This document shows positions 35,499 through 46,969 of a stretch of DNA of 64,000 bases, one piece after another. A model generated the notes under the pieces. It had not been told where the DNA came from and searched no databases. It was given only the letters and a program-made list of their open reading frames with translations. Location: the NCBI GenBank assembly GCA_965226495.1, contig OZ245365.1, forward strand, positions 5,344,001 through 5,408,000, in the 5' to 3' direction. The number at the start of each line of letters is the position of its first letter. Positions within the stretch are counted from its first letter, which is position 1. The stretch is from Candidatus Marinacidobacterales bacterium. Its GTDB lineage: Bacteria; Acidobacteriota; Vicinamibacteria; Marinacidobacterales; DATDRI01. The position numbers and the translations under genes were made by a program.

Positions 35499-37645
35499 TC
35501 AATCGACCCATCCCAGCACATTGCGGGCAACCGACCAACGAGGCTCCGTTTCCTCGGCGTCTTTCCCCAGGACCCAATAATCGAAGAGCTCCCGGAGGGT
35601 CCCATCTTTCGTTTTGAGCTCGATCCACGTATCGAGAAACGCTGCCATCTCCTGGTCACCTCCCGCCACCACGTAGACCAGGGGCAGCTTGAGCGGATCG
35701 GGCTGCGGCACCACCACAGAGTACTCCGGATACAGAAGGCTCCATGCCGACCCGCGCTCGGCCGTCATGACCCCGGCATCCACCTCATCGCCTAGCTCGT
35801 CGAAGAACTCGGAGATCGTATCGATCGTCCTCACCTTGGCGTCTGGTAAGAGTCTTCGAATCCTCACGGTGATCTCTTGAAACGGCATGGTCGCGATCGT
35901 AACCGCGCCTAGCTTCCTAGCGGACTGCCAATCGCGAAATTCCGCGCGACGATGATCTTTGACTATGAAAGCCAGGGTCTCATCCATATAAGCCTGAGAC
36001 AGCGTCATGAGACGCGCCCGTTTCGTTGTCACCGCGAATCCCGACATGATGACGTCCCACCGGCTTCCATCTAGCTCTTCGAACAACTTGGTCCGATCGA
36101 CCGGAACGAACTCGAGCTCGACACCGAGCTCTCCGGCCAACTGGTGAGCCATATCCACATCGAATCCGACGAGATCTCCCGCGCCGTTAAAGAAGGCATA
36201 GGGTAGGCTGTCCAAGAAGAATCCCACCCTCAAGAATCCTCTCTCTTCGATCAGTTCCAAACGACTGAGACGATCGGAGAGCGGGAGCGGTTCCGGCGGG
36301 GCGTCACGGTATACCCGCACCGACGCCGGGGTTCGGACGAGGTGCATCCCTGCAATGATCTGATCCTGGTCGTATTGCTGATGGAGCGAGTGGCTGAACA
36401 TGAAACGGGCCCCGCCTATGGTCACGATCGTCAAAGCCAGGCTGACACCCAGATAGCGGAAGACCCTTCGCACGTTGAACGTCAGCACTCCGAGAACGGC
36501 GCAAACTCCGACCCACGCTACGGTCACGGTGTGCATCGCAGCAACGAGAGTGCCGAACCGAGACTGGACGATGTCCGTCGTCACGTAGAGCTCGAACAAG
36601 TCCGCCGGTATCTCGAAGAGATCCAGAAGAAACGGGATGGCCGCGTGGGTGCTTCCGAATAGAGTCACGAGGCCGGTCAATGCCAGCTTCGGATACTCTG
36701 ATACTGCGACGACCGACTCGGAGAACCATCCCGCGAAAAGGACGAAACTCAGCGTCAACAGCTTGCCGATGTGAGGAAAGTTGAAAGAAGAAGAAACGAT
36801 GACGTCGGTGACGTCGTCCGACTCATGAGATACCAGCTTGTGCCGGTGCAGAAGCTCCTTACTTTTGTCCATGAGAATGGGCAAGACGACAAACAGACTG
36901 CCGGTCATGAACGCGGTAATGAGCGCATCCTTCGTTTGAACGATCACTTCGCCATGCTTGATGGGAGTCACAATAGAAATCAACCCCGGAAGTAACCAGA
37001 GCGTGATCAGCAGTGCCACCGCCACATAGATGATGAGATAGACCTGAATGCGTCCAAACTCGTGGACCGTCATCGTACCCGCGGCGTTAGAGGCGATGGC
37101 GAAGATGCCGAATGGTGTCAATTGGACGACGAGGTGGTTAGCTCGGGAAATCGTCCTCTGGATGGTGTGAAGTGTGTCGAGGAGTCCCTCCTGCTTTTCC
37201 ACGCCGATCAATGCCGCTCCTAGGAGCACGCTGAACAAGACCACCGCAGGAACGACGGCATTTGCCAAAGAATGAAACGGGTTGGCAGGAATATAGAGCT
37301 CGAGAAAATTAAAGGGCTCGCTACGCTCCAGCAAGCTCGCGCTGAAAAACGACGCAGTCTCCCAAAGGAGGGAAGGCTAGCGGCATGAGGAACACCATCG
37401 CCAGCCCCAATATCCAGCGCGACCAGCACCGCACCGACTCTTCGGACCATGAGGACAGCGTGCTTGTAGTCCAGACTTCCGATTCCCACGATCAAAGAAA
37501 CCGTGACATAGGGGAGCACCGTCATATGGAGAAGCTCTATGAATGCCTCGGCGGGATAGTGCATGAACACCATGGACTCGCCGAAGAAGACACCAAGGGT
37601 GATGCCAGAAGCGAGTCCAACGTAGATCTTGGTCGAGAAGCTCAT
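35499..37645 (-). pseudogene. DAACS symporter fused to a C-terminal family-3 SBP, two frameshifts near 37365-37415
   Basis: The N-part (37645) and C-part (37334) join via ILGLAMVFLMPLAFPP and WETASFFS in shifted frames; the SBP has PYAF and GFDVDMA. Confidence 0.8.
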
Positions 37646-37697: not shown

Positions 37698-39707
37698 TTA
37701 CGGACACGCGTAAGGCTCCCTTGTCAACGCATCCCAGATCTCACCCAACGACGTGTTCACGCACCACGCGCGCTCATGGAGGGCGCTCCATACGCCGCCC
37801 GCCTTCGCCCGCGCCTTGATAGTCATTCGGGATCCGCGAAGCGTGATCTCTTCTGCGTTCTCAGCGAGACGAGCGCTTGCGGCCGCTTCCCCTCCCGATA
37901 CACGAGGATCGACCCCGTCAATCGTATAGAAGATCCGCCCCCTCGGATTGGGATTGTGTAGTCGCGTAGAAGGCGCCGACAGAAACCCCGGACGAGTGGT
38001 ATCGAATTCGGGTGGATCGAGACGCGGATAATAGCCTTCCTGGCGAAGCACCTTTATGAGGCGCTCGACGCTCCCGGTCATCATCGTTTCGACCCTCTCC
38101 ACCTCCGTGTAAAAAGTGTTCTCCCGAGTTCGCGTGGTCGCACCTAGCCCCTTACGTGCATCTCCCCAGCGAGCCGACTCCGCTACCACCGCATCCTCGA
38201 TGAAATCGCTGAGAGCCCGCCACCTCGCTATCGAATTCTCCTCGGTAAGGGCGCCACCATGGAAACAGTGCTTGAAGACTCGATCGGCGAAGATCGTCAT
38301 GAACTCGGGACTCTTCCGAAGCGCGTGCCAGATTCCTACCATAGCCTGGTCCTGACGATCCTCCGACGAGCGAAAAGGCTCCTGAAGGTTCCAGGCGGAG
38401 CCAGAGTCGCGGCGAGCCCCATCGGGGCGACGCATACTAACCCAGCTCACTTCCGCATCCCACACAAAGAATCGAAATGGAGAGGCCGGGTGATTGCGAT
38501 TGCCCCCGTACCAGTTGTTCCTGGGCCAGTCGCCGAAGCCGGCCATGAACGCTAGAACCATGTAGTCGGCGAACCATTCGATATCGAGATACTCTTGCAC
38601 CTCACCATAGTTGTCGGGGTCGCGAAGGTCCTTATCCTTGAGCGAGCCCCGAAGATAGTCCCACCGCCCGGGGTGACCTTGGAACGGCCCGCGGTGGTTG
38701 ACCGCAAACCAATCTTCCTTTGCCCCTCCAAAGGTGGCCGACGTAAACCAGGCGTCTGGCCGCTCGCAGGCGTTATAGAGCCCCCAGTAGAGGCCGTTGA
38801 TGTATAGATGAACGAAGGTTCCGTGCGGCCCCGAGCCGGACATTGCGATCTGTGAATCCCGAGCCCATTGGTCTCGGACATACGTGGTTCGGTTTGGCAA
38901 GAAATTCATGGCAAACGAACGGATCGTCCCTGATCGCAAGACGATTCGGTCCAAAGTGTCGGTCGCCGAGTCACCGTTGAAGACGGCGTTGTCCTGGAAG
39001 AATGTCGTTTTCAGCTTCGCCGGGCCAAACTCTTTCTTGAACTTGAGCTTCAAGGAACGCTTCACCCCGGCGGCCGCGTGGGACTCCAAGGCGCAATTCT
39101 CTTGGAAGCTCCGTCCCGGGTGGTTCGGGTAAATGAACTCCGCAGACGCTTTTCGCGTGCGCCCGTCGTCGCGACTGGCGAAGTAGATCCCATCTACTCC
39201 GAACATGGCCGTCCGGTCGACGGCCAAAGACAACGTCGGGATCGACTTCAGCCCTCGAATGAGCGTTGCCCTCTGACTCGGATCGTCGACGATGTCGGGA
39301 TCCATTTCATAATCGAGCTCGACCGTCGTGTCCCTCCCCGCCGGAAGCAAGGGGGTCGGATAGCCTGCGACCTGCTTCGGCTGCCGAATCACGTCGTCTA
39401 GAAAGATGTAGGTTTGAGTATCTACGTTGCTCGGAAGTTTGCCTTGGGCGTAGGCGATGGCTCGTAACACAGTCGTCTCGGAAATGTCGACCGAAACGGG
39501 GTTTCGACCGCCCCTTCCATGGTCGGGTCCGGGGAGACTGCCGTCTGTGGTGTAACGGAGGAGAGAGCCTTCCGTTTCGGATTGGATAACCACCGTGAAT
39601 CCCACGGAGTAAAACCCTCGCTTGTAGTTGAACCTTGTGTCGGCCACCTGCTCCATCGAGCTGGCGATCCCGGAGGCCAGGAAAAGCGATGCGGCGAGCC
39701 AGATCAT
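37698..39707 (-). CDS. Secreted CotH-like kinase with flanking Fn3-associated domains (paralog 1)
   Basis: Signal peptide; RYTTDGSLP; HLYINGLYWGLYNACERPD, DWPRNNW, FFVWDAE; FYTIDGVDPR. Confidence 0.85.
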   Translation of the reverse strand: MIWLAASLFLASGIASSMEQVADTRFNYKRGFYSVGFTVVIQSETEGSLLRYTTDGSLPGPDHGRGGRNPVSVDISETTVLRAIAYAQGKLPSNVDTQTYIFLDDVIRQPKQVAGYPTPLLPAGRDTTVELDYEMDPDIVDDPSQRATLIRGLKSIPTLSLAVDRTAMFGVDGIYFASRDDGRTRKASAEFIYPNHPGRSFQENCALESHAAAGVKRSLKLKFKKEFGPAKLKTTFFQDNAVFNGDSATDTLDRIVLRSGTIRSFAMNFLPNRTTYVRDQWARDSQIAMSGSGPHGTFVHLYINGLYWGLYNACERPDAWFTSATFGGAKEDWFAVNHRGPFQGHPGRWDYLRGSLKDKDLRDPDNYGEVQEYLDIEWFADYMVLAFMAGFGDWPRNNWYGGNRNHPASPFRFFVWDAEVSWVSMRRPDGARRDSGSAWNLQEPFRSSEDRQDQAMVGIWHALRKSPEFMTIFADRVFKHCFHGGALTEENSIARWRALSDFIEDAVVAESARWGDARKGLGATTRTRENTFYTEVERVETMMTGSVERLIKVLRQEGYYPRLDPPEFDTTRPGFLSAPSTRLHNPNPRGRIFYTIDGVDPRVSGGEAAASARLAENAEEITLRGSRMTIKARAKAGGVWSALHERAWCVNTSLGEIWDALTREPYACP

Positions 39708-39794
39708 CGGCCTGATTATAGGCTGACTCGTGCGGTTGAAGCGGCGGCTTGCCCGTTAGAAGCGGCTAGACTAACATCGCTCGACTCGAAGGCT

Positions 39795-41135
39795 ATGCTG
39801 CGGACAGAGGCTTCTCTCAAAGACCTAGGGCTATACCGCCTTATTCCCGCGAGCCTGACGATCTTGACCATCAGTTTGTCGGGCTGCAGCCCCCCTTCGC
39901 AGGACAGTATGTACTCGCTTATGGACGGCCTCCAGGAAGCCAGCAAGCATTTCGAGGGCGGTCGTTATCCAGATTTCGTCGGCGAACCGAGCGCCTCCGG
40001 CCCGGTGGAGATCGCCGGGAGAGAGATGGAGGCGTTAACACCCCCGTTTCCATCCACGACGAGTTTCGAGATCGTAGTGCCTCGCGCAGGCTTCCTCGAG
40101 TTCTCACCGGCTCTGATCATGGCGCAACGCGTTCGACGCGCCCGAGTCGAGTATCGAATCATTCTGGAGGGGCTGGAGGGGCCTGATGGCGACGAAACTA
40201 CCAGTGTCTACCGGGAGACATTTCGAGCCAACGAAGCCAATCAGTGGCACGATCGCCGGGTCGATTTATCGCCCTGGGAAGGCCAGACCATCGTCTTGAC
40301 GTTTTCGACGCAGACGATCCCCCCGCGCGAGAACGCCTTGTGGGCCGAGCGCATCCAGACTGCGTGGGGAGATCCGATCCTTGCCGAACGTCCATGGAAC
40401 TTGTTGGCGAATAGCATCGAACGGCTCCCCTCCGAATCCGTCAATTGGTTGGGAGAACAATTCGACGACTCCGGCCTCGGACCGGACGAGCAAGTCATGA
40501 CGGCGCGCTTCTTCATCAACCTCCTGGTGGGCGGTCTGTTGGCGCTGGCAATCCGTGAGCTCTACAGACGCTACTCTTCGACGGTTATCAACCGGGAGTC
40601 TTTTGCAGACATGCTCCCGCTCTTCACACTGAGCACGATTGTCGTCATCTCGGTCGTACAATATTCTCCCGCGCTTGCCTTAGGACTTATCGGCGCCTTG
40701 TCCATTGTTAGGTTTCGAACCTCGATCGCGAGTCCCGAAGAGCTCGTTTATCTCCTGGTGTGTGTTGGCCTCGGCGTAGCATTGGGAGGAAACCACATGC
40801 TGCTAGGAATCACGACAGTGAGTGTGATAGCGCCCTTCGTCATATGGTTGAGAGGGTCGGGTGAAGCTAGGACTCCTGACCGCTTGGTTCTCACCGTGAC
40901 CGGAGATGCGAGTCGTTTCTTCTCGAGCGACGGCCCGAGCGTCGTCGACATCGTTCAGCGCATGACTAAAGTCATGACCGTGGACAGGCTCGACTATCAG
41001 GCGAAAGAAGTGTTCTTTCGAGCGCAGATTGTGGTCGAGAACCGTGACCGCGCCATAGAGCTGCTGACAACGCTTCGGGGAAGGGTTCGCCAATGCGAAA
41101 TTTCGACGCACGATACGAGCACGTCTGGGCATTAA
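39795..41135 (+). CDS. Lipoprotein extracytoplasmic domain fused to a DUF4956 membrane domain
   Basis: LSGC lipobox; WHDRRVDLSPWEGQ...AWGDP; ALGLIGALSIVRFRT...PEELVYL. Confidence 0.8.
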   Translation: MLRTEASLKDLGLYRLIPASLTILTISLSGCSPPSQDSMYSLMDGLQEASKHFEGGRYPDFVGEPSASGPVEIAGREMEALTPPFPSTTSFEIVVPRAGFLEFSPALIMAQRVRRARVEYRIILEGLEGPDGDETTSVYRETFRANEANQWHDRRVDLSPWEGQTIVLTFSTQTIPPRENALWAERIQTAWGDPILAERPWNLLANSIERLPSESVNWLGEQFDDSGLGPDEQVMTARFFINLLVGGLLALAIRELYRRYSSTVINRESFADMLPLFTLSTIVVISVVQYSPALALGLIGALSIVRFRTSIASPEELVYLLVCVGLGVALGGNHMLLGITTVSVIAPFVIWLRGSGEARTPDRLVLTVTGDASRFFSSDGPSVVDIVQRMTKVMTVDRLDYQAKEVFFRAQIVVENRDRAIELLTTLRGRVRQCEISTHDTSTSGH

Positions 41136-41271
41136 ATGGATCAGTGCGCGCTCAATCGTCGATCACGGCCGCGGGGCCCCACCGACATTACTGCATCACA
41201 GCTCGCGGGGACCCCACCCCCACGAGCTACAACTGGGCTGATGGCTCCGGCTCTCGATTCGCGTCTCGCTT

Positions 41272-41327
41272 CCCGCCTACGCTCTTCGAGCTTCGGCGAG
41301 GTCCCGCCGCAGCCTTGGCAAAGGCGG
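41272..41327. repeat. REP-like extragenic palindromic element
   Basis: CCCGCCTACGCTCTTCGAGCTTCGGCGAGG...CCGCCGCAGCCTTGGCAAAGGCGG forms nested short hairpins between co-oriented genes. Confidence 0.5.
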
Positions 41328-41386
41328 ACGCTCGCGCTGCGCTCGGGCTGAGGGCTCTGCCGCCGACCGAAGCTGGGTGAGTCCGT

Positions 41387-43513
41387 ATGGACCTTGTTCG
41401 CTCCGTCTGCGTCCTGTTGATCTCTACGGGGTTCCTCGCCGCCGAACCTCCGCAGGCGCTCAATCAGGTCAAGGACACTCGCTTCAACTACAAACGCGGG
41501 TTCTATTCTTCAGGCATCACCGTGCTCATCTCCTCCAATACCGACGGAGCACGCATCCGCTACACACTCGACGGAAGTGCCCCGACGCCTACCCACGGAG
41601 GGGGAGACCGAAACCCCCTGACCGTGGACATAGACCGAACCACGACCTTGAGAGTTATCGCTTACAAGGAGGGAATGCTTTCCAGCAATGTAGACACTCA
41701 AACCTACCTCTTCCTAAAGGATGTCCTCGAGCAGCCGGCACGAGTTCCCGGCTACCCGAACCCCAAGCTGCCAAGCGGTATCCGTGAGATGGTGACGCTC
41801 GAATACGAAATGGACCCACGAGTCGTGCGCGATCGGCACGACCGGTTTGCCATGCGGCGCGGACTCGAATCCATCCCCACTCTCTCGATCGTCATGGACA
41901 AAGACGACCTGTTTCGACGGGTCACTCTACCTGGCAGCGACCGTACTGATGTTCTTGGAAGTGGGATCTATTGGGGAGGGAGCATGGAGGGAGGCCGTTT
42001 CGGAAGTCGGGAGGGGAGCACGCGGCCCGCATCCGTCGAGCTCTTGTACCCTCATCGACCTGCAAAGAACACCCAGGTAGATGCTGCCATCGAGGGACAC
42101 AGTTGGCGCCTCGTCAAACGGGCGTTCCGGCTCGTGTTCAAGAAGGAGTACGGTACGGGAAAATTCGAATCTTCCATCTTCCAAGACGCCCCACTGAATG
42201 GCGAGACCGCGGCCGGCGTTTACGATCGGATCGTGCTCCGTTCAGGGAAGAACCGTTCCTGGGCCACGAGCTGGTATCCCAACCGCACCGCCTATACGCG
42301 CGATCAATGGGCCAGGGATACTCAGATCGCGATGTCAGGGCTAGGCTCGCACGGCACGTTCGTGCATCTGTACCTCAACGGACTCTATTGGGGTGTCTAC
42401 AACGCGTGCGAAAGGCCCGACGCTTGGTTCTTGGCTGCACATCTGGGTGGATCGATGCAGGACTGGTTCGCGGTGAACGAAGATGGGCCTTTTCATGGAG
42501 ACCCGGCGCGGTGGAATTACCTGAGGCGCGAGCTCAAAGACAAGAATATGCGAGAACCTTCCCATTATGAAGAGCTCCAGAGGTACCTGGACATAGCAAA
42601 GTTCGCGGACTACATGATCCTCTGCTGGTACATGCACGATTGGGATTGGCCAGACTACAACTGGTTCGCGGGAAGCCGTATCAATCCCCCTTCTCCCATA
42701 ATGTTTTTCGTATGGGATGCTGAGCTCAGTTGGGAGACCGGCCCGGACGCGGCAGCTTGGGTGCATCCCCGTTTTCGAGCCGACCAAGATAGCGACGAAG
42801 CCAACATGGTAGGCATATGGCATTCGCTCAGAAAGAACAGTGACTTCATGATTCTATTTGCGGATCGCGTATATCGTCATTGTTTTAACGAGGGAGCTCT
42901 GACCCAGGTCAACGTCACGGAGCGTTGGCGGTTTCTCAATCGGTTCGTCGAGGACGCTCTTCTTGCTGAGTCGGCTCGTTGGGGTGACGCACGAGAAGAA
43001 GTGGGTGCGACGAGGCGAACTCGAGAGAATACGTTCTATCCAGAGGTGGAACGAGTCGCGGAGCGGATGCGTAGAAACGTCGAGAAGCTCATTGAGGCCT
43101 TACGTGAAGAGGGCTATTACCCTGCCCTCGATCCCCCGGAGCTAAAGGTTTCGACGGCCCTGACCGGTGGGAAGGTCGTTGAGTTGGGTAATCCCAATAG
43201 GCGCAACAGGCCTAACAGGCCCAACCGCGACAATGGAACCATCTATTACACGTTGACCGGCGAAGATCCTCGCTCTCCCGGCGGCGACCTTTCGCCGAAC
43301 GCCTTTCGCGGAGCTGCCGGGAAGAAAATTACGCTGGGGCTATCTGCGACTTTGAAGGCTCGTGTCAAGACCAACGGGCCCGAAGGCGAATGGAGTGCCC
43401 TTGCGGAAGCGATGCCCGGCTTCCTGGCTACGGTCAGAGCGAACCCGTCTTTTCTCTCGGGCCCTCCGCAGTTACATCGCTCGGCGATAGCGTCACATCC
43501 ATTGCGCCATTAG
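41387..43513 (+). CDS. Secreted CotH-like kinase with flanking Fn3-associated domains (paralog 2)
   Basis: DTRFNYKRGFYS shared with paralog 1; HLYLNGLYWGVYNACERPD, DWPDYNW, FFVWDAE. Confidence 0.85.
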   Translation: MDLVRSVCVLLISTGFLAAEPPQALNQVKDTRFNYKRGFYSSGITVLISSNTDGARIRYTLDGSAPTPTHGGGDRNPLTVDIDRTTTLRVIAYKEGMLSSNVDTQTYLFLKDVLEQPARVPGYPNPKLPSGIREMVTLEYEMDPRVVRDRHDRFAMRRGLESIPTLSIVMDKDDLFRRVTLPGSDRTDVLGSGIYWGGSMEGGRFGSREGSTRPASVELLYPHRPAKNTQVDAAIEGHSWRLVKRAFRLVFKKEYGTGKFESSIFQDAPLNGETAAGVYDRIVLRSGKNRSWATSWYPNRTAYTRDQWARDTQIAMSGLGSHGTFVHLYLNGLYWGVYNACERPDAWFLAAHLGGSMQDWFAVNEDGPFHGDPARWNYLRRELKDKNMREPSHYEELQRYLDIAKFADYMILCWYMHDWDWPDYNWFAGSRINPPSPIMFFVWDAELSWETGPDAAAWVHPRFRADQDSDEANMVGIWHSLRKNSDFMILFADRVYRHCFNEGALTQVNVTERWRFLNRFVEDALLAESARWGDAREEVGATRRTRENTFYPEVERVAERMRRNVEKLIEALREEGYYPALDPPELKVSTALTGGKVVELGNPNRRNRPNRPNRDNGTIYYTLTGEDPRSPGGDLSPNAFRGAAGKKITLGLSATLKARVKTNGPEGEWSALAEAMPGFLATVRANPSFLSGPPQLHRSAIASHPLRH

Positions 43514-43553
43514 TTTGGCTGGAGTATCATCTCGGCCACAGAAGGAAGACGAC

Positions 43554-44240
43554 GTGCTGGCGAACCTGACCGATTGGTATAACAACCTGAGCCCGGAAAC
43601 GAACATGGTCGTTCGTTGTACGATCAGTATGCTCCTCGGTGGCGTAATCGGCATCTACGTCCGGGAGCTCTACAAGCGTTGCAGTACCTCCCTTTCGAAT
43701 CGGGAGAGCTTCGCGAACATTTTTCCGGTACTCACTGCGGTCACCGTGGTGATCATTTTCGTGGTCAAGTCATCGCTAGCGCTGTCTCTGGGGCTGGTCG
43801 GAGCACTCTCCATCGTTCGGTTCCGAACCGCCATCAAGACCCCAGAGGAGCTCGTCTACTTGTTTTTCTGTATCGGAGTCGGCCTCGCTCTCGGAGCAGA
43901 ACATCGGCTACTAGCCTTCGTGGCGGTCTTCGTCGTTTCGGTCTTTATCTTGAGCCGCCGCTTTCTTACCAAGAGGGCCCGTCAGCACAATCTGCTTCTT
44001 ACCGTCACCGGTGATGCGGATCGCTTCTTCGAGAAGTCCGGAGGCAACGTGGTGGACATCCTCAAAGAAACCACAAAGAGCCTCACCATTCAGCGTTTCG
44101 ACCTCGAGGAGGGGCAGGTTCAATTCCGCGCTAACGTCTCTCTGCAGAGTCCGGATGAAACCACCGCCCTCATGTTCGCCCTCCAGACAAAACTTCCACA
44201 GCTGCAAGTTTCCTACGTGAATCTAGATTCGCTGCTCTAG
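43554..44240 (+). CDS. DUF4956 membrane protein (stand-alone)
   Basis: KSSLALSLGLVGALSIVRFRTAIKTPEELVYLF. Confidence 0.88.
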   Translation: MLANLTDWYNNLSPETNMVVRCTISMLLGGVIGIYVRELYKRCSTSLSNRESFANIFPVLTAVTVVIIFVVKSSLALSLGLVGALSIVRFRTAIKTPEELVYLFFCIGVGLALGAEHRLLAFVAVFVVSVFILSRRFLTKRARQHNLLLTVTGDADRFFEKSGGNVVDILKETTKSLTIQRFDLEEGQVQFRANVSLQSPDETTALMFALQTKLPQLQVSYVNLDSLL

Positions 44241-44250
44241 TGTTCTGCGC

Positions 44251-45465
44251 TTAGGGCTGGTCGAGGAGTGCCAGGAGTGTCCTGCGGCGGGACAGGAGGC
44301 GTTCTTGGAAAACGAGCATCCTTTTCGTCCGGTCGGTACGCGCGGCTAACTGCACTTCCTCAGGAAGCCCGCTGTCGATCTTCTCCACCGTCTCCCTGAC
44401 GTTTCGCAAGGTAGCGATTAGCTTCTCTTCCGTCAGAAGGCCTTCTAAGAGACTACGGAGGACGCGTTTGTATCAAGAATATAGCTGCTTGTCTTCACGA
44501 ATGACGAAATCGAGATCCATTTCGCAAGCGTAGAGCAAGGGGTCGCGAAGCACCAACCCTGCCCGAATCGGCATCTCTTGAACGTCATCGTAATCCCAAG
44601 CCACCAAATCGAGCCGTCCCCACTGAGCATCTTTAGCTCGCTCTTCGAAGAGGTAGAGCTCGTTGCGAGAGTCTCCGTTCTCGGACAGGCTGTTGAACGC
44701 CAGCCAGCGAAGGTAGCGGTCAAGGTTCATTTTGCGATCTAGCTCGTCCTCCAAGGCCTTGCCGTTCTCTTTCCTCGTCGCGCGCCGTATCGAGTGCACA
44801 AGGCTCAACGGATCGGACTGAGGGATTGAGTATTTGACGGAGTACTTCACTCTTGCTCTCCGACCGTTTGGCCGTATCACGGAGACTACGTTAGATGAGC
44901 TCCGGCGGATGGCGTCCTCGGGTCGCTCGACCAATAAGTAGAGTCCTTGCGGTTTTCCATTGATAAAGATGCTCACGTACTGAAAATAGCTTGGAAAAAG
45001 GCCCAGCTTCGCAAGAAGACGATAGCCGGTGACCATCTCGAAACGATGCGGATCGAAGAGCATGTTCAGCAGAAGGAATTTGCGGAGCTTGACCTCAGTG
45101 AATCTCTGCGTTTCGAACAGGGTGACTAGAAAGCTCTTGCGTTCCGACCACCTGGTCGTCGCCCCGCGAACGCGCAGCATCGCCGGCATGGCCGGCCCGC
45201 TGGCAAACGAGATATCCACTTGCGCCTGGAATCTGAGGCGTTTCCGGAAATCCAGGACGACGCTTTCCGGCATGCCCAGGTCGACTCTGAGACCTGGCCG
45301 ATCGATTCGCCGCTCGGTAAAAATGCGCCGGGCCTTCCCTTGCTCGGGCAGTGTGTCGAAGCCAGTTCCTTGTTCCGTATCGGGGAGGCTAAGCGCAACG
45401 AAGATCCCGATCGCCACCAGGACCAACGGGAGAAGGAGCCAAGGGAAGAGGGAGCGCAAACGCAT
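44251..45465 (-). pseudogene. Membrane-anchored CotH-like kinase (paralog 3) with a premature in-frame TGA
   Basis: N-terminal TM; RVRGATT..RKSF, GLYLLVE, NGDSRNE, VAWDYD. TGA at 44473-44475 (LYS*YKRVLRSLL); the frame stays open to TAA at 44251. Confidence 0.8.
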
Positions 45466-45502
45466 CCGTTTCGTTGGGCCCTAAGACGGGGTGAAACCAG
45501 CG

Positions 45503-46969
45503 TTACTCAGTCGCCGAGGAGCCATCCAATAAGCCGAGTTGCAGACAGCCTTGCACGTATTTGGACGATTTCGTGACATAAGGCTCGATGGGATGCAGCA
45601 ATGCTCTCAGCGCTTCACTGTTGGCGGTCGGAATCTTGGCCTCCAGGATCACAAGCTCTGACCCCTTGGTGCCGAACGCCTTTCGTGGACGGTTCAACCC
45701 CCTCTGAGAGTAGCTGACGATATCCTCATCCAACGTGATGCGCGCCGGGCTTCCCGATGCGCGAAAATACTCGCGCCGATACCGTGTCATCAGGACCGCC
45801 TCTGGACGGGCCAGCAGCATTTCTGCTGCAGGCACTGGCAAAACCCTCTGCAGCTCGGCCAAGATTTCACGATAGGTCATATCTCCCAACGGCTGATGTG
45901 CACGGAGCTCAACACGTTCTTTGTGAATCATGGAGTCGACGCGCCTCTTGATTTCGAAAAAAAATCGCCCGCGGCGGTCATCGTCATCGTACCAGCGAAG
46001 CCTGACTTTCGCCCTTCGCGGCACACCATCCAAGTTCTCTTGACAGCCGCTCAGTCGAACGTCGTCGTAATAGATAGTGCTGACCACCGAACTAGGTCCG
46101 TTGTGTATGATACGCTGACAGTTAACCTCGAGTATCGAGCGCACTTTCGCTACATCGGCGTTAGGGAGGGCAAACTTCACTTCTCGACGCGACAGATCGA
46201 CTCCTGATGATTCTCGCGGCTCCTCGACCACTTCCAGTTTCGCCGACGACGCGGCGGTCACCTTACCGGCCCGCTCAGAAATCGCCTTCCCACCGCCCGC
46301 CTGAACGTCGTCGATAGCGACAGAGGATACCTTGAGTTGAGGGAGCACCCCTCGGAGCTCCTCCAAAACGTCAGTCGTTTCCTCAGTTGCTTCTAGAGTC
46401 AACATGGCGCGGAGCTCCACTCGGTCGCCATCCTGGTCGAGCCGCTGAAACGTAACTGGCTTGATCTTGCTCAAGCGCTCCAGACCGGACAAGCCATCAC
46501 TAGGGAAAAAGTGCTCCGCGTCGCCGGCAATTTTCAGGATCAGCGTCCTCTCATAGGCTGGATGATTCGCGACCTGGCGGAAGATGACGAACGTGGCCAC
46601 AATCACCGCGGCGACGAGGGCGAGAGTAAGCTGACCTGCACCTAGCGCCAAGCCCATCGAGACGCAGAACAACAGGTAAACAATCTCCTCCGGGCTCTTG
46701 ATAGGTCCCCGGAACCGGACAATCGTGAGTGCTCCAATTAGACCCAGCGAAAGAGCAAGCGATGCCTGAACGACCGCGATGACGACGATGGTCGTCATCG
46801 TGAAGAGCGGAAACATTCTTGCGAACTCCTCCCGGTCGGACGCAGTGGTTCCGAAGTGTTTGTAGAGCGCTCCAATGAAAAGCGCCAAGAGCCCTCCCAA
46901 GGTAAGGTTGAGTCCAAAAAACAAGAGGGCTCGAACGTCTTCTGGAGCCAAACCTAGGGAAATGTTCAT
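45503..46969 (-). CDS. DUF4956 membrane domain fused to a VTC (polyphosphate polymerase, CYTH/TTM-like) domain
   Basis: SLALSLGLIGALTIVRFRGPIKSPEE, then RREVKF, STIYYD, KVRLRWY, FFEIK, YRREYF, RITLD, ILEAK, SKY. Confidence 0.88.
   Translation of the reverse strand: MNISLGLAPEDVRALLFFGLNLTLGGLLALFIGALYKHFGTTASDREEFARMFPLFTMTTIVVIAVVQASLALSLGLIGALTIVRFRGPIKSPEEIVYLLFCVSMGLALGAGQLTLALVAAVIVATFVIFRQVANHPAYERTLILKIAGDAEHFFPSDGLSGLERLSKIKPVTFQRLDQDGDRVELRAMLTLEATEETTDVLEELRGVLPQLKVSSVAIDDVQAGGGKAISERAGKVTAASSAKLEVVEEPRESSGVDLSRREVKFALPNADVAKVRSILEVNCQRIIHNGPSSVVSTIYYDDVRLSGCQENLDGVPRRAKVRLRWYDDDDRRGRFFFEIKRRVDSMIHKERVELRAHQPLGDMTYREILAELQRVLPVPAAEMLLARPEAVLMTRYRREYFRASGSPARITLDEDIVSYSQRGLNRPRKAFGTKGSELVILEAKIPTANSEALRALLHPIEPYVTKSSKYVQGCLQLGLLDGSSATE

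Follow-up and report, generated by a model that had tools for sequence, protein, structure and literature searches.

From what source could a kinase that has been exported from the cytoplasm, and so has to act where ATP is absent, draw its phosphoryl groups? Our search of the literature found no established answer, either for the phosphoryl donor of exported bacterial kinases or for the route by which polyphosphate (polyP) reaches the bacterial surface. Both questions are raised by a gene cluster of Candidatus Marinacidobacterales bacterium (Acidobacteriota), which occupies positions 37698-46969 of a 64,000-nucleotide stretch of contig OZ245365.1 (hereafter, the window) in a host genome of 6.34 Mb assembled as one contig. 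The cluster combines genes for CotH-type kinases with genes for membrane proteins of the family DUF4956, one of which is fused to a VTC domain, the type found in the yeast polyP polymerase Vtc4. Our favored answer, to which we assign slightly less than even chances, is that DUF4956 is a conduit coupled to a polyP synthase and supplies exported phosphotransferases with phosphoryl groups.

Six open reading frames (ORFs) fill the span, three of them encoding CotH proteins and three encoding DUF4956 proteins (stand-alone, lipoprotein-fused, and VTC-fused). This two-class inventory had been drawn up in an earlier sequence-only reading of the window, and Pfam bears it out. The CotH genes A (37698-39707, minus strand, 669 amino acids [aa]), C (41387-43513, plus strand, 708 aa), and E (44473-45465, minus strand, 330 aa) match PF08757 with E values of 5e-20, 3e-14, and 9e-29, respectively. 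The DUF4956 genes B (39795-41135, plus strand, 446 aa), D (43554-44240, plus strand, 228 aa), and F (45503-46969, minus strand, 488 aa) match PF16316 at 36.7 bits (4e-9), 58 bits (1e-15), and 43.9 bits (3e-11), the cut-off being 30.6, and the C-terminal half of F also matches the VTC family PF09359 (85.7 bits versus a cut-off of 23; E = 4.5e-24). Genome-wide, the cluster holds the sole VTC match, all three DUF4956 matches, and three of the seven CotH matches; since the three families are concentrated here, their clustering is not a matter of chance. A single six-gene operon is ruled out because the genes face three ways, forming three transcription units: A (minus), B-C-D (plus), and F-E (minus).

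Gene F encodes a membrane part (residues 19-129), an ACT domain (143-221), and the VTC domain (261-481). Profile alignments to yeast Vtc4 showed that F retains all nine active-site residues: K265, R323, R325, K341, Y397, R399, E443, S468, and K469, equivalent to Vtc4 K200, R264, R266, K281, Y359, R361, E426, S457, and K458, respectively. These nine residues are needed for polyP synthesis by Vtc4, and K458, which is catalytic, sets active Vtc4 apart from Vtc2 and Vtc3 (10.1101/2023.01.27.525886). In a set of 68 bacterial VTC sequences, eight of the nine never vary, and the ninth, Y397, is conserved in at least 90%. The profile match between the VTC domain of F and Vtc4 had an E value of 1.6e-15, whereas a search of the PDB with the single VTC domain sequence gave no match, so that profiles were required. 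We also built a full-length model of F from 12 close sequences; its mean predicted local distance difference test (pLDDT) score was only 54, with the membrane part below 50, and it was used for the VTC fold only. The top Foldseek rows for this model were VTC chains, the best being Vtc4/VTC. In phosphatases of the triphosphate tunnel metalloenzyme type, an acidic patch takes the place of basic residues of Vtc4 (PMC4641920). At the corresponding positions, F carries the basic residues R261 and K445, like R196 and K428 of Vtc4, together with E263 at the position of Vtc4 T198, and 55 of the 63 bacterial VTC proteins have the pattern R-x-E-x-K. F thus likely carries a polyP polymerase, and the earlier assignment of its VTC domain as a Vtc4-type polymerase domain looks correct by its residues. 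The DUF4956-VTC fusion occurs in 18 of the 31 F homologues for which precomputed Pfam annotation was consulted, and one close homologue of F is attributed to a Vicinamibacteria bacterium. The host genome also encodes PPK1, and therefore a second, membrane-tethered polymerase suggests a vectorial job.

What, then, might the membrane part do? The model of D (pLDDT 92) comprises five helices followed by an ACT domain predicted to be cytoplasmic, for which a fold match was obtained with a Z score of 10.3 and a root-mean-square deviation of 2.1 over 78 aligned residues. Fold searches with this model returned ACT-like matches only, as the ACT domain dominates and the membrane domain was barely probed against solved folds. 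Among 128 DUF4956 homologues, R89, F90, R91, E99, and four small residues (D numbering) are invariant, while R42, R50, and K95 on the inner side and K72 in the outer turn are basic in 77-99% of cases; the third helix is rich in Ser, Ala, and Gly. The topology appears to be N-out and C-in: in B and related proteins an exported domain stands ahead of helix 1, and the ACT and VTC domains come after helix 5. The channel of yeast VTC is lined by basic residues (PMC9911596), and the basic residues at both faces of the DUF4956 model could be the look of a polyanion conduit. The DUF4956 profile matched none of the Vtc chains at E values up to 10, and we saw no likeness to the Vtc membrane subunits. 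F gave a weak match to MgtC (PF02308), below the family cut-off (18.9 versus 31.4 bits; E = 0.002), with no match for B or D at an E value of 0.01.

DUF4956 also carries domains predicted to face the periplasm. Gene B encodes a lipobox (LSGC, Cys31), an NPCBM-like beta domain, DUF4956, and ACT. The NPCBM-like assignment is an Atlas lead (0.93-0.94, with NPCBM on 22% of one cluster), and the domain recurs in 16 ORFs of the genome, two orphan CotH genes among them. Protein P0011 holds a periplasmic domain, DUF4956, and VTC in a single chain. Our quick DUF4956 tree, which has 126 columns and long branches, places stand-alone and fused forms in separate groups (Shimodaira-Hasegawa-like approximate likelihood ratio test [SH-aLRT] support of 95 and 85), with the VTC-fused form inside the second. 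In Chloroflexota (L078, L102, L107, L110, L119, and L120), DUF4956 bears a different exported beta-sandwich domain, which is 3-keto-disaccharide-hydrolase-like in two database homologues and would represent an independent gain of a periplasmic domain. A VTC-DUF4956 hetero-oligomer resembling yeast VTC had been proposed earlier. That idea is weakened by the lack of detectable likeness to the Vtc membrane domain, and an obligatory DUF4956 heteromer is ruled out as a general arrangement because 77 of the 79 DUF4956 loci that we surveyed have at most one DUF4956 gene, with more than one in only two.

The enzymes that accompany DUF4956 in other bacteria change on both sides of the membrane. A search for longer homologues of VTC-less DUF4956 returned six proteins, two of which are DUF4956 fused to a full-length PPK1. 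These fusions have the same order as DUF4956-VTC, are represented by two clusters from two sources with three full-length-sized sequences (P0302, P0303, and P0305), and group with the VTC-less DUF4956 clade in the quick tree (SH-aLRT 98). Two unrelated polyP synthases are therefore found fused behind DUF4956, and this is the best single argument that DUF4956 handles polyP.

On the other side, a predicted exported dikinase takes the place of CotH in two phyla. It has an ATP-grasp domain of the phosphoenolpyruvate (PEP)-synthase type (E = 2.5e-18 to 2ols), preceded by an invariant histidine in a QTPLSH motif, follows DUF4956-VTC in L069, L096, L146, and L149, and lies directly beside DUF4956 in both of the Bacteroidota genomes where DUF4956 occurs without CotH. 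Two Planctomycetota genomes with the dikinase also carry CotH elsewhere. The dikinases examined in Planctomycetota and Bacteroidota (L096:4312-6771, L069:9434-11863, L166:7275-9167, and L167:7120-8994) include some with EF-hands. With one query, we found no such dikinase in the host genome or in 40 relatives.

A further partner may exist within the host order, in a family (f3) whose DUF4956 has neither ACT nor VTC and is encoded in one operon with an Omp85 protein, a metallophosphoesterase, and a phytase-like propeller. The Omp85 gene was present in all six f3 loci fetched (L055:7151-9811 and L056-L060), and its product has at least 1,006 homologues. Its N-terminal domain contains invariant GxGQS, RSLDK, DxDRHxGQW, and PEDRDQAF motifs and has CotH (0.77) and HipA (0.76) as Atlas neighbours, while comparison with our CotH profiles (HMM and hhalign) was not significant. 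We treat a kinase-like nature of this domain as a lead only.

The CotH proteins of the cluster appear to be catalytically intact in their core motifs. Both catalytic aspartates, equivalent to D228 and D251 of Bacillus subtilis CotH, are kept in A, C, and E. Protein A has the motifs DWPRNNW (D393) and VWDAE; in C, which matches 5jd9, D420, W421, N425, and D444 are invariant across 15 homologues; and in E, which matches 5jd9 with an E value of 1.3e-8, D265 and D291 align with the catalytic aspartates. A (probable signal peptide) and C (predicted signal peptide) both have a CotH domain between two FN3-like domains, and E is a membrane-anchored kinase of a second subfamily. Export was read from N-terminal hydrophobic segments and the lipobox in the sequences, no signal-peptide predictor being used, and the segment of A, which falls under the hydropathy cut-off, was judged by eye. 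In other phyla, an N-terminal hydrophobic segment is present in 72 of 79 CotH ORFs near DUF4956 versus 1 of 63 VTC proteins; the earlier claim that the CotH proteins are exported thus holds for most module-linked ones, as far as such segments tell. Lamin-tail, PKD, FN3, beta-helix, EF-hand, or type IX sorting domains were found in 28 sampled module-linked CotH proteins, 6 of which lack a Pfam CotH match and were assigned by our own profile only. CotH at L043:5590-9048 is joined to an arylsulfotransferase domain. The host genome has four orphan CotH genes (G000:C1 545569, 865870, 2848843, and 6270867) with PA14, lamin-tail, or NPCBM-like domains.

Not all copies in the cluster are equal. C is the conserved CotH of the cluster, and A, 52% identical to it, is by sequence comparison a local extra copy outside the conserved set: B-C-D-E-F is present in both same-genus genomes examined (G001 and G002), while a counterpart of A beside the cluster is absent from both. 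E stops after 330 codons at an in-frame TGA (44473-44475), and the frame stays open for 73 further codons to a TAA (44251-44253), so that 44251-44472 is a relic 3' coding tail. Neither same-genus genome shows this truncation: their E orthologues are complete at 402 and 418 aa and have Arg where E has the TGA. Contigs from four of four runs span the site, with no other letter among the pieces listed; by their codes the runs belong to four studies, although they possibly derive from one campaign and one is possibly the source of the assembly. Because all four runs agree on the codon, E is a genuine nonsense allele that keeps its catalytic aspartates and has lost its last 74 residues; sequencing error and recoding are ruled out by this agreement and by the Arg of the orthologues. 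The orphan CotH gene at 6270867 is likewise interrupted by a stop. Across the order, the usual set is a stand-alone DUF4956, one FN3-CotH, a periplasmic-domain-DUF4956 fusion, and a separate VTC. The description of the cluster as expanded therefore needs dividing: the extra paralogues are real, and in part they reflect local duplication (A) and decay (E).

Surveys with Pfam and of gene neighborhoods showed that the association reported here by the sequence-only reading is strongly conserved across many phyla. Among 41 genomes of the order, VTC was found in 19, CotH in 20, and DUF4956 in 29, with neither VTC nor CotH in 21. All 19 VTC-positive genomes have CotH, and the sole genome with CotH and no VTC is in 560 contigs. 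When the 41 related genomes were compared by eye, 30 of 31 VTC matches adjoined a DUF4956 match. A set of 51 Bacteroidota genomes gave a similar picture: 16 have DUF4956, 16 have CotH, 14 have both, and 33 have neither, and all 9 VTC-positive genomes carry both. A genome may hold as many as 10 orphan CotH genes, and these are almost exclusively found in module-bearing genomes. B. subtilis was the sole control genome with CotH but neither VTC nor DUF4956, and its CotH is the spore-coat enzyme. Bacteroides thetaiotaomicron and Corynebacterium glutamicum each encode VTC, DUF4956, and CotH.

The 79 loci mentioned above are the best from a genome collection, picked for likeness to D, and include kin that are not independent. 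They come from Bacteroidota, Chloroflexota, Planctomycetota, Verrucomicrobiota, Pelagibacteraceae, a Woesearchaeote, and others, many carriers being marine by their record titles. VTC and CotH are both present in 52; among the 53 loci with at least 4 kb on each side, 43 have both, 6 have CotH only, 3 have VTC only, and 1 has VTC and the dikinase. Glycan-related gene families occur in 26 of the 79, exported metallophosphoesterases in 14, and an exported CYTH protein in 3. The CYTH proteins (L095:8654-9529, L134:8597-9469, and L105:7240-8271) have a signal peptide and a C-terminal anchor, lie between DUF4956 and CotH, and are likely periplasmic tri- or polyphosphatases. At L061:6985-10838, CotH, VTC, and DUF4956 adjoin genes for a phosphate-selective porin and an Omp85 protein. 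The metallophosphoesterases, the CYTH proteins, and this porin would act on phosphate beyond the cytoplasm, in keeping with polyP supply through DUF4956. An HlyD-type adaptor stands beside DUF4956 by position in eight Bacteroidota loci (L161-L165 and L169-L171), four of six tested being confirmed by Pfam; L161-L165 also encode a 410-aa putative outer-membrane channel and have no VTC.

Domain content, catalytic residues, fusions, linkage, and partner swaps are matters of observation. DUF4956 is the constant element, accompanied by a polyP synthase on the cytoplasmic side and an exported phosphotransferase on the other. The arrangement is most simply read as export of polyP coupled to its synthesis, and both the PPK1-DUF4956 fusions and the replacement of CotH by an exported dikinase fit a donor-supply role. 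DUF4956 would be an inner-membrane conduit paired with a cytoplasmic polyP synthase, namely the Vtc4-type VTC domain fused in F here and a separate VTC protein or PPK1 in other bacteria. The polymer would be made from cytoplasmic ATP beside a DUF4956 oligomer whose cytoplasmic mouth is basic, and its chain would cross through this oligomer to the periplasm. There, it could serve CotH A, CotH C, and the four orphan CotH proteins as a phosphoryl source, used either directly or to recharge a bound nucleotide, and these exported phosphotransferases would modify envelope glycans or proteins. We infer the polymerase activity, the oligomer and its pore, the direction of transport, the use of the donor, and the substrates. 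A wider form of the proposal seems to us more doubtful, roughly a one-in-three matter: that DUF4956 is a polyP channel unrelated to that of yeast, is fed by either VTC or PPK1, and drives phosphorylation outside the cytoplasm as a general system independent of ATP in many bacterial phyla and some archaea. At least three enzyme folds would plug into this system, namely CotH, the ATP-grasp dikinase, and probably the kinase-like domain fused to Omp85.

Several observations weigh against polyP supply through DUF4956. The main difficulty lies in the partner enzymes, all of which have ATP-binding folds, so that several folds would each need to accept polyP; the dikinase keeps its PEP-synthase-type nucleotide-binding domain, and the only characterized CotH, that of Bacillus, is a Ser/Thr protein kinase that uses ATP (PMC7821199). 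The E263 residue retained in F may leave its VTC domain with hydrolase activity, and the polyP of a Streptococcus homologue was suggested to be cytoplasmic (10.1101/2024.04.20.589940). VTC is dispensable, because many DUF4956-positive genomes have no VTC match (7 of 16 in Bacteroidota and 8 of 8 in family f3). PPK1 is encoded in all eight VTC-less DUF4956-positive genomes tested, where it is unlinked, and it is common in any case (7 of 14 controls). The linkage itself has exceptions: two Bacteroidota genomes have CotH and no DUF4956, three well-flanked loci have VTC and no CotH, and six loci with upstream sequence (L144, L150, L151, L152, L159, and L160) have the dikinase without DUF4956 next to it. 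Related genomes, in addition, are not independent samples.

The same polymerase and fusion evidence would apply if polyP were exported as an end product, i.e., a surface polyanion, matrix component, or cation chelator, with CotH-fold proteins binding, trimming, or attaching it. The HlyD-type adaptors by DUF4956, some with the putative outer-membrane channel, would carry such a product past the periplasm, and the porin in L061 agrees with it. We nevertheless regard this as fairly unlikely, given that CotH proteins keep both catalytic aspartates, that an unrelated dikinase can replace them, and that no adaptor gene is present in this cluster. Also unlikely, in our estimation, is that DUF4956 forms no pore at all and is an MgtC-like regulatory scaffold, linking a periplasmic CotH or dikinase that acts as sensor or modifier to a cytoplasmic VTC or PPK1 with polyP or triphosphatase activity confined to the cell interior. 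The weak MgtC match, the MgtC-like architecture of a membrane domain plus ACT, the E263 of VTC, and the periplasmic binding-type domains fused to DUF4956 all agree with a scaffold, which would leave the exported kinases without a phosphoryl donor; moreover, orphan CotH genes are nearly confined to module genomes, and a shared supply fits this better than a one-to-one sensor does.

The ATP-binding folds of all partner enzymes and the many DUF4956 loci without VTC would suit a transporter that exports ATP or another nucleotide to the kinases, with VTC or PPK1 buffering or regenerating nucleotide at the membrane. Against this stand the two enzymes fused on the cytoplasmic side, which are polyP synthases of unrelated folds, and the lack of any likeness of DUF4956 to a solved nucleotide carrier, even though the fold searches barely tested its membrane part; we find nucleotide export quite improbable. 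Flow in the opposite direction has the poorest prospects and strikes us as very improbable. In this case, polyP from the environment would be gathered by exported phosphatases, CYTH proteins, and porins and taken up through DUF4956, with VTC or PPK1 running in reverse to yield ATP or phosphate. PPK1 is reversible, many carriers are marine, and the exported metallophosphoesterases, phytase-like propellers, CYTH proteins, and phosphate porin of the neighborhoods would all serve such uptake. Import would not account for exported kinases whose catalytic residues are intact and which bear carbohydrate-binding or secretion domains, nor for the link to glycan-synthesis genes and to pel loci.

The rest of the region adds little to these questions. 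The cluster is flanked on one side by a gene for a dicarboxylate-symporter-family membrane domain joined to a periplasmic binding domain (35499-37645, minus strand) and on the other by a gene for a membrane protein without family assignment. The symporter fusion seems split at 37364, which is probably an assembly error because three of four runs lack the extra base. The intergenic stretch 41136-41386 is a mosaic of palindromic repeats that are dispersed in the genome (47 other blastn matches) and lies outside the module. Rfam gave no match in 30000-54000, this repeat mosaic included, and promoter and terminator scans of the region were at chance level (5 versus 3.0 and 8 versus 9.8, respectively). 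NCBIfam had no name for any of the six cluster proteins, and Pfam found no SPX domain in any of them. The region was in none of the RNA runs listed, which has no bearing on its expression.

The cluster is thus a real, ordinary-looking instance of a widespread uncharacterized module, set apart by its DUF4956-VTC fusion and retained paralogues. If polyP supply through DUF4956 is true, a function is gained for a family that numbers about 6,800 sequence clusters. Bacteria would then have their own counterpart to the VTC machine of yeast, based on a different membrane domain, and the presence of CotH in nonsporulating bacteria, also next to pel biofilm loci, would be explained. Because F, P0011, and P0302 are natural single-chain fusions, the idea can be tested with a single purified protein.

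How does the module compare with known systems? The trio had been called uncharacterized, and we likewise found no functional study or export proposal for it in the full-text literature searched, which leaves out most subscription papers; it is already in print, without a function, beside Gram-positive pel loci. There, cotH, a polyP polymerase, and DUF4956 (with or without DUF4832) are accessory genes of pelDEADAFG loci (10.1101/768473), and a 2024 preprint models each trio protein and reports the trio nowhere outside pel (10.1101/2024.04.20.589940). The trio is also listed in the table of the NELoc-2 locus of Clostridium perfringens (PMC2879425), the other DUF4956 literature that we found consists of expression-table mentions only, and a review of VTC evolution covers eukaryotes only. 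The pel accessory cassette shares with our cluster the adjacency of the three families, a secreted CotH with FN3, and a DUF4956 described as an MgtC-like membrane domain plus ACT. It differs in that the flanks of our cluster contain no pel genes (pel was not sought elsewhere in the genome), that the trio is widespread outside pel loci in our survey, and that a diderm host, a VTC-DUF4956 fusion, three DUF4956 paralogues, and a lipoprotein fusion are found here. The host, most likely an Acidobacterium, is a member of a diderm group that is not known to sporulate.

Like the eukaryotic VTC complex (Vtc4/Vtc3/Vtc1; 3g3q, 7ytj, and 8i6v), F has a Vtc4-type tunnel domain, complete in its nine active-site residues, that is tethered to a small multi-pass membrane domain. 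Unlike it, F lacks SPX, keeps one acidic-patch glutamate, has an N-terminal membrane domain of a family modeled with five helices plus ACT rather than the three helices of Vtc1, and is coupled to exported kinases instead of a vacuole. The CotH proteins share with the Bacillus spore-coat kinase (5jd9 and 5jda) a kinase domain with both catalytic aspartates, but they carry export signals and FN3-like domains, and no CotB/CotG-type substrates were seen nearby. Finally, DUF4956 resembles MgtC/SapB in having a small membrane domain followed by ACT and in its weak Pfam match, whereas its score below the family cut-off, its invariant RFR motif, and its fusion or linkage to polyP synthases set it apart.

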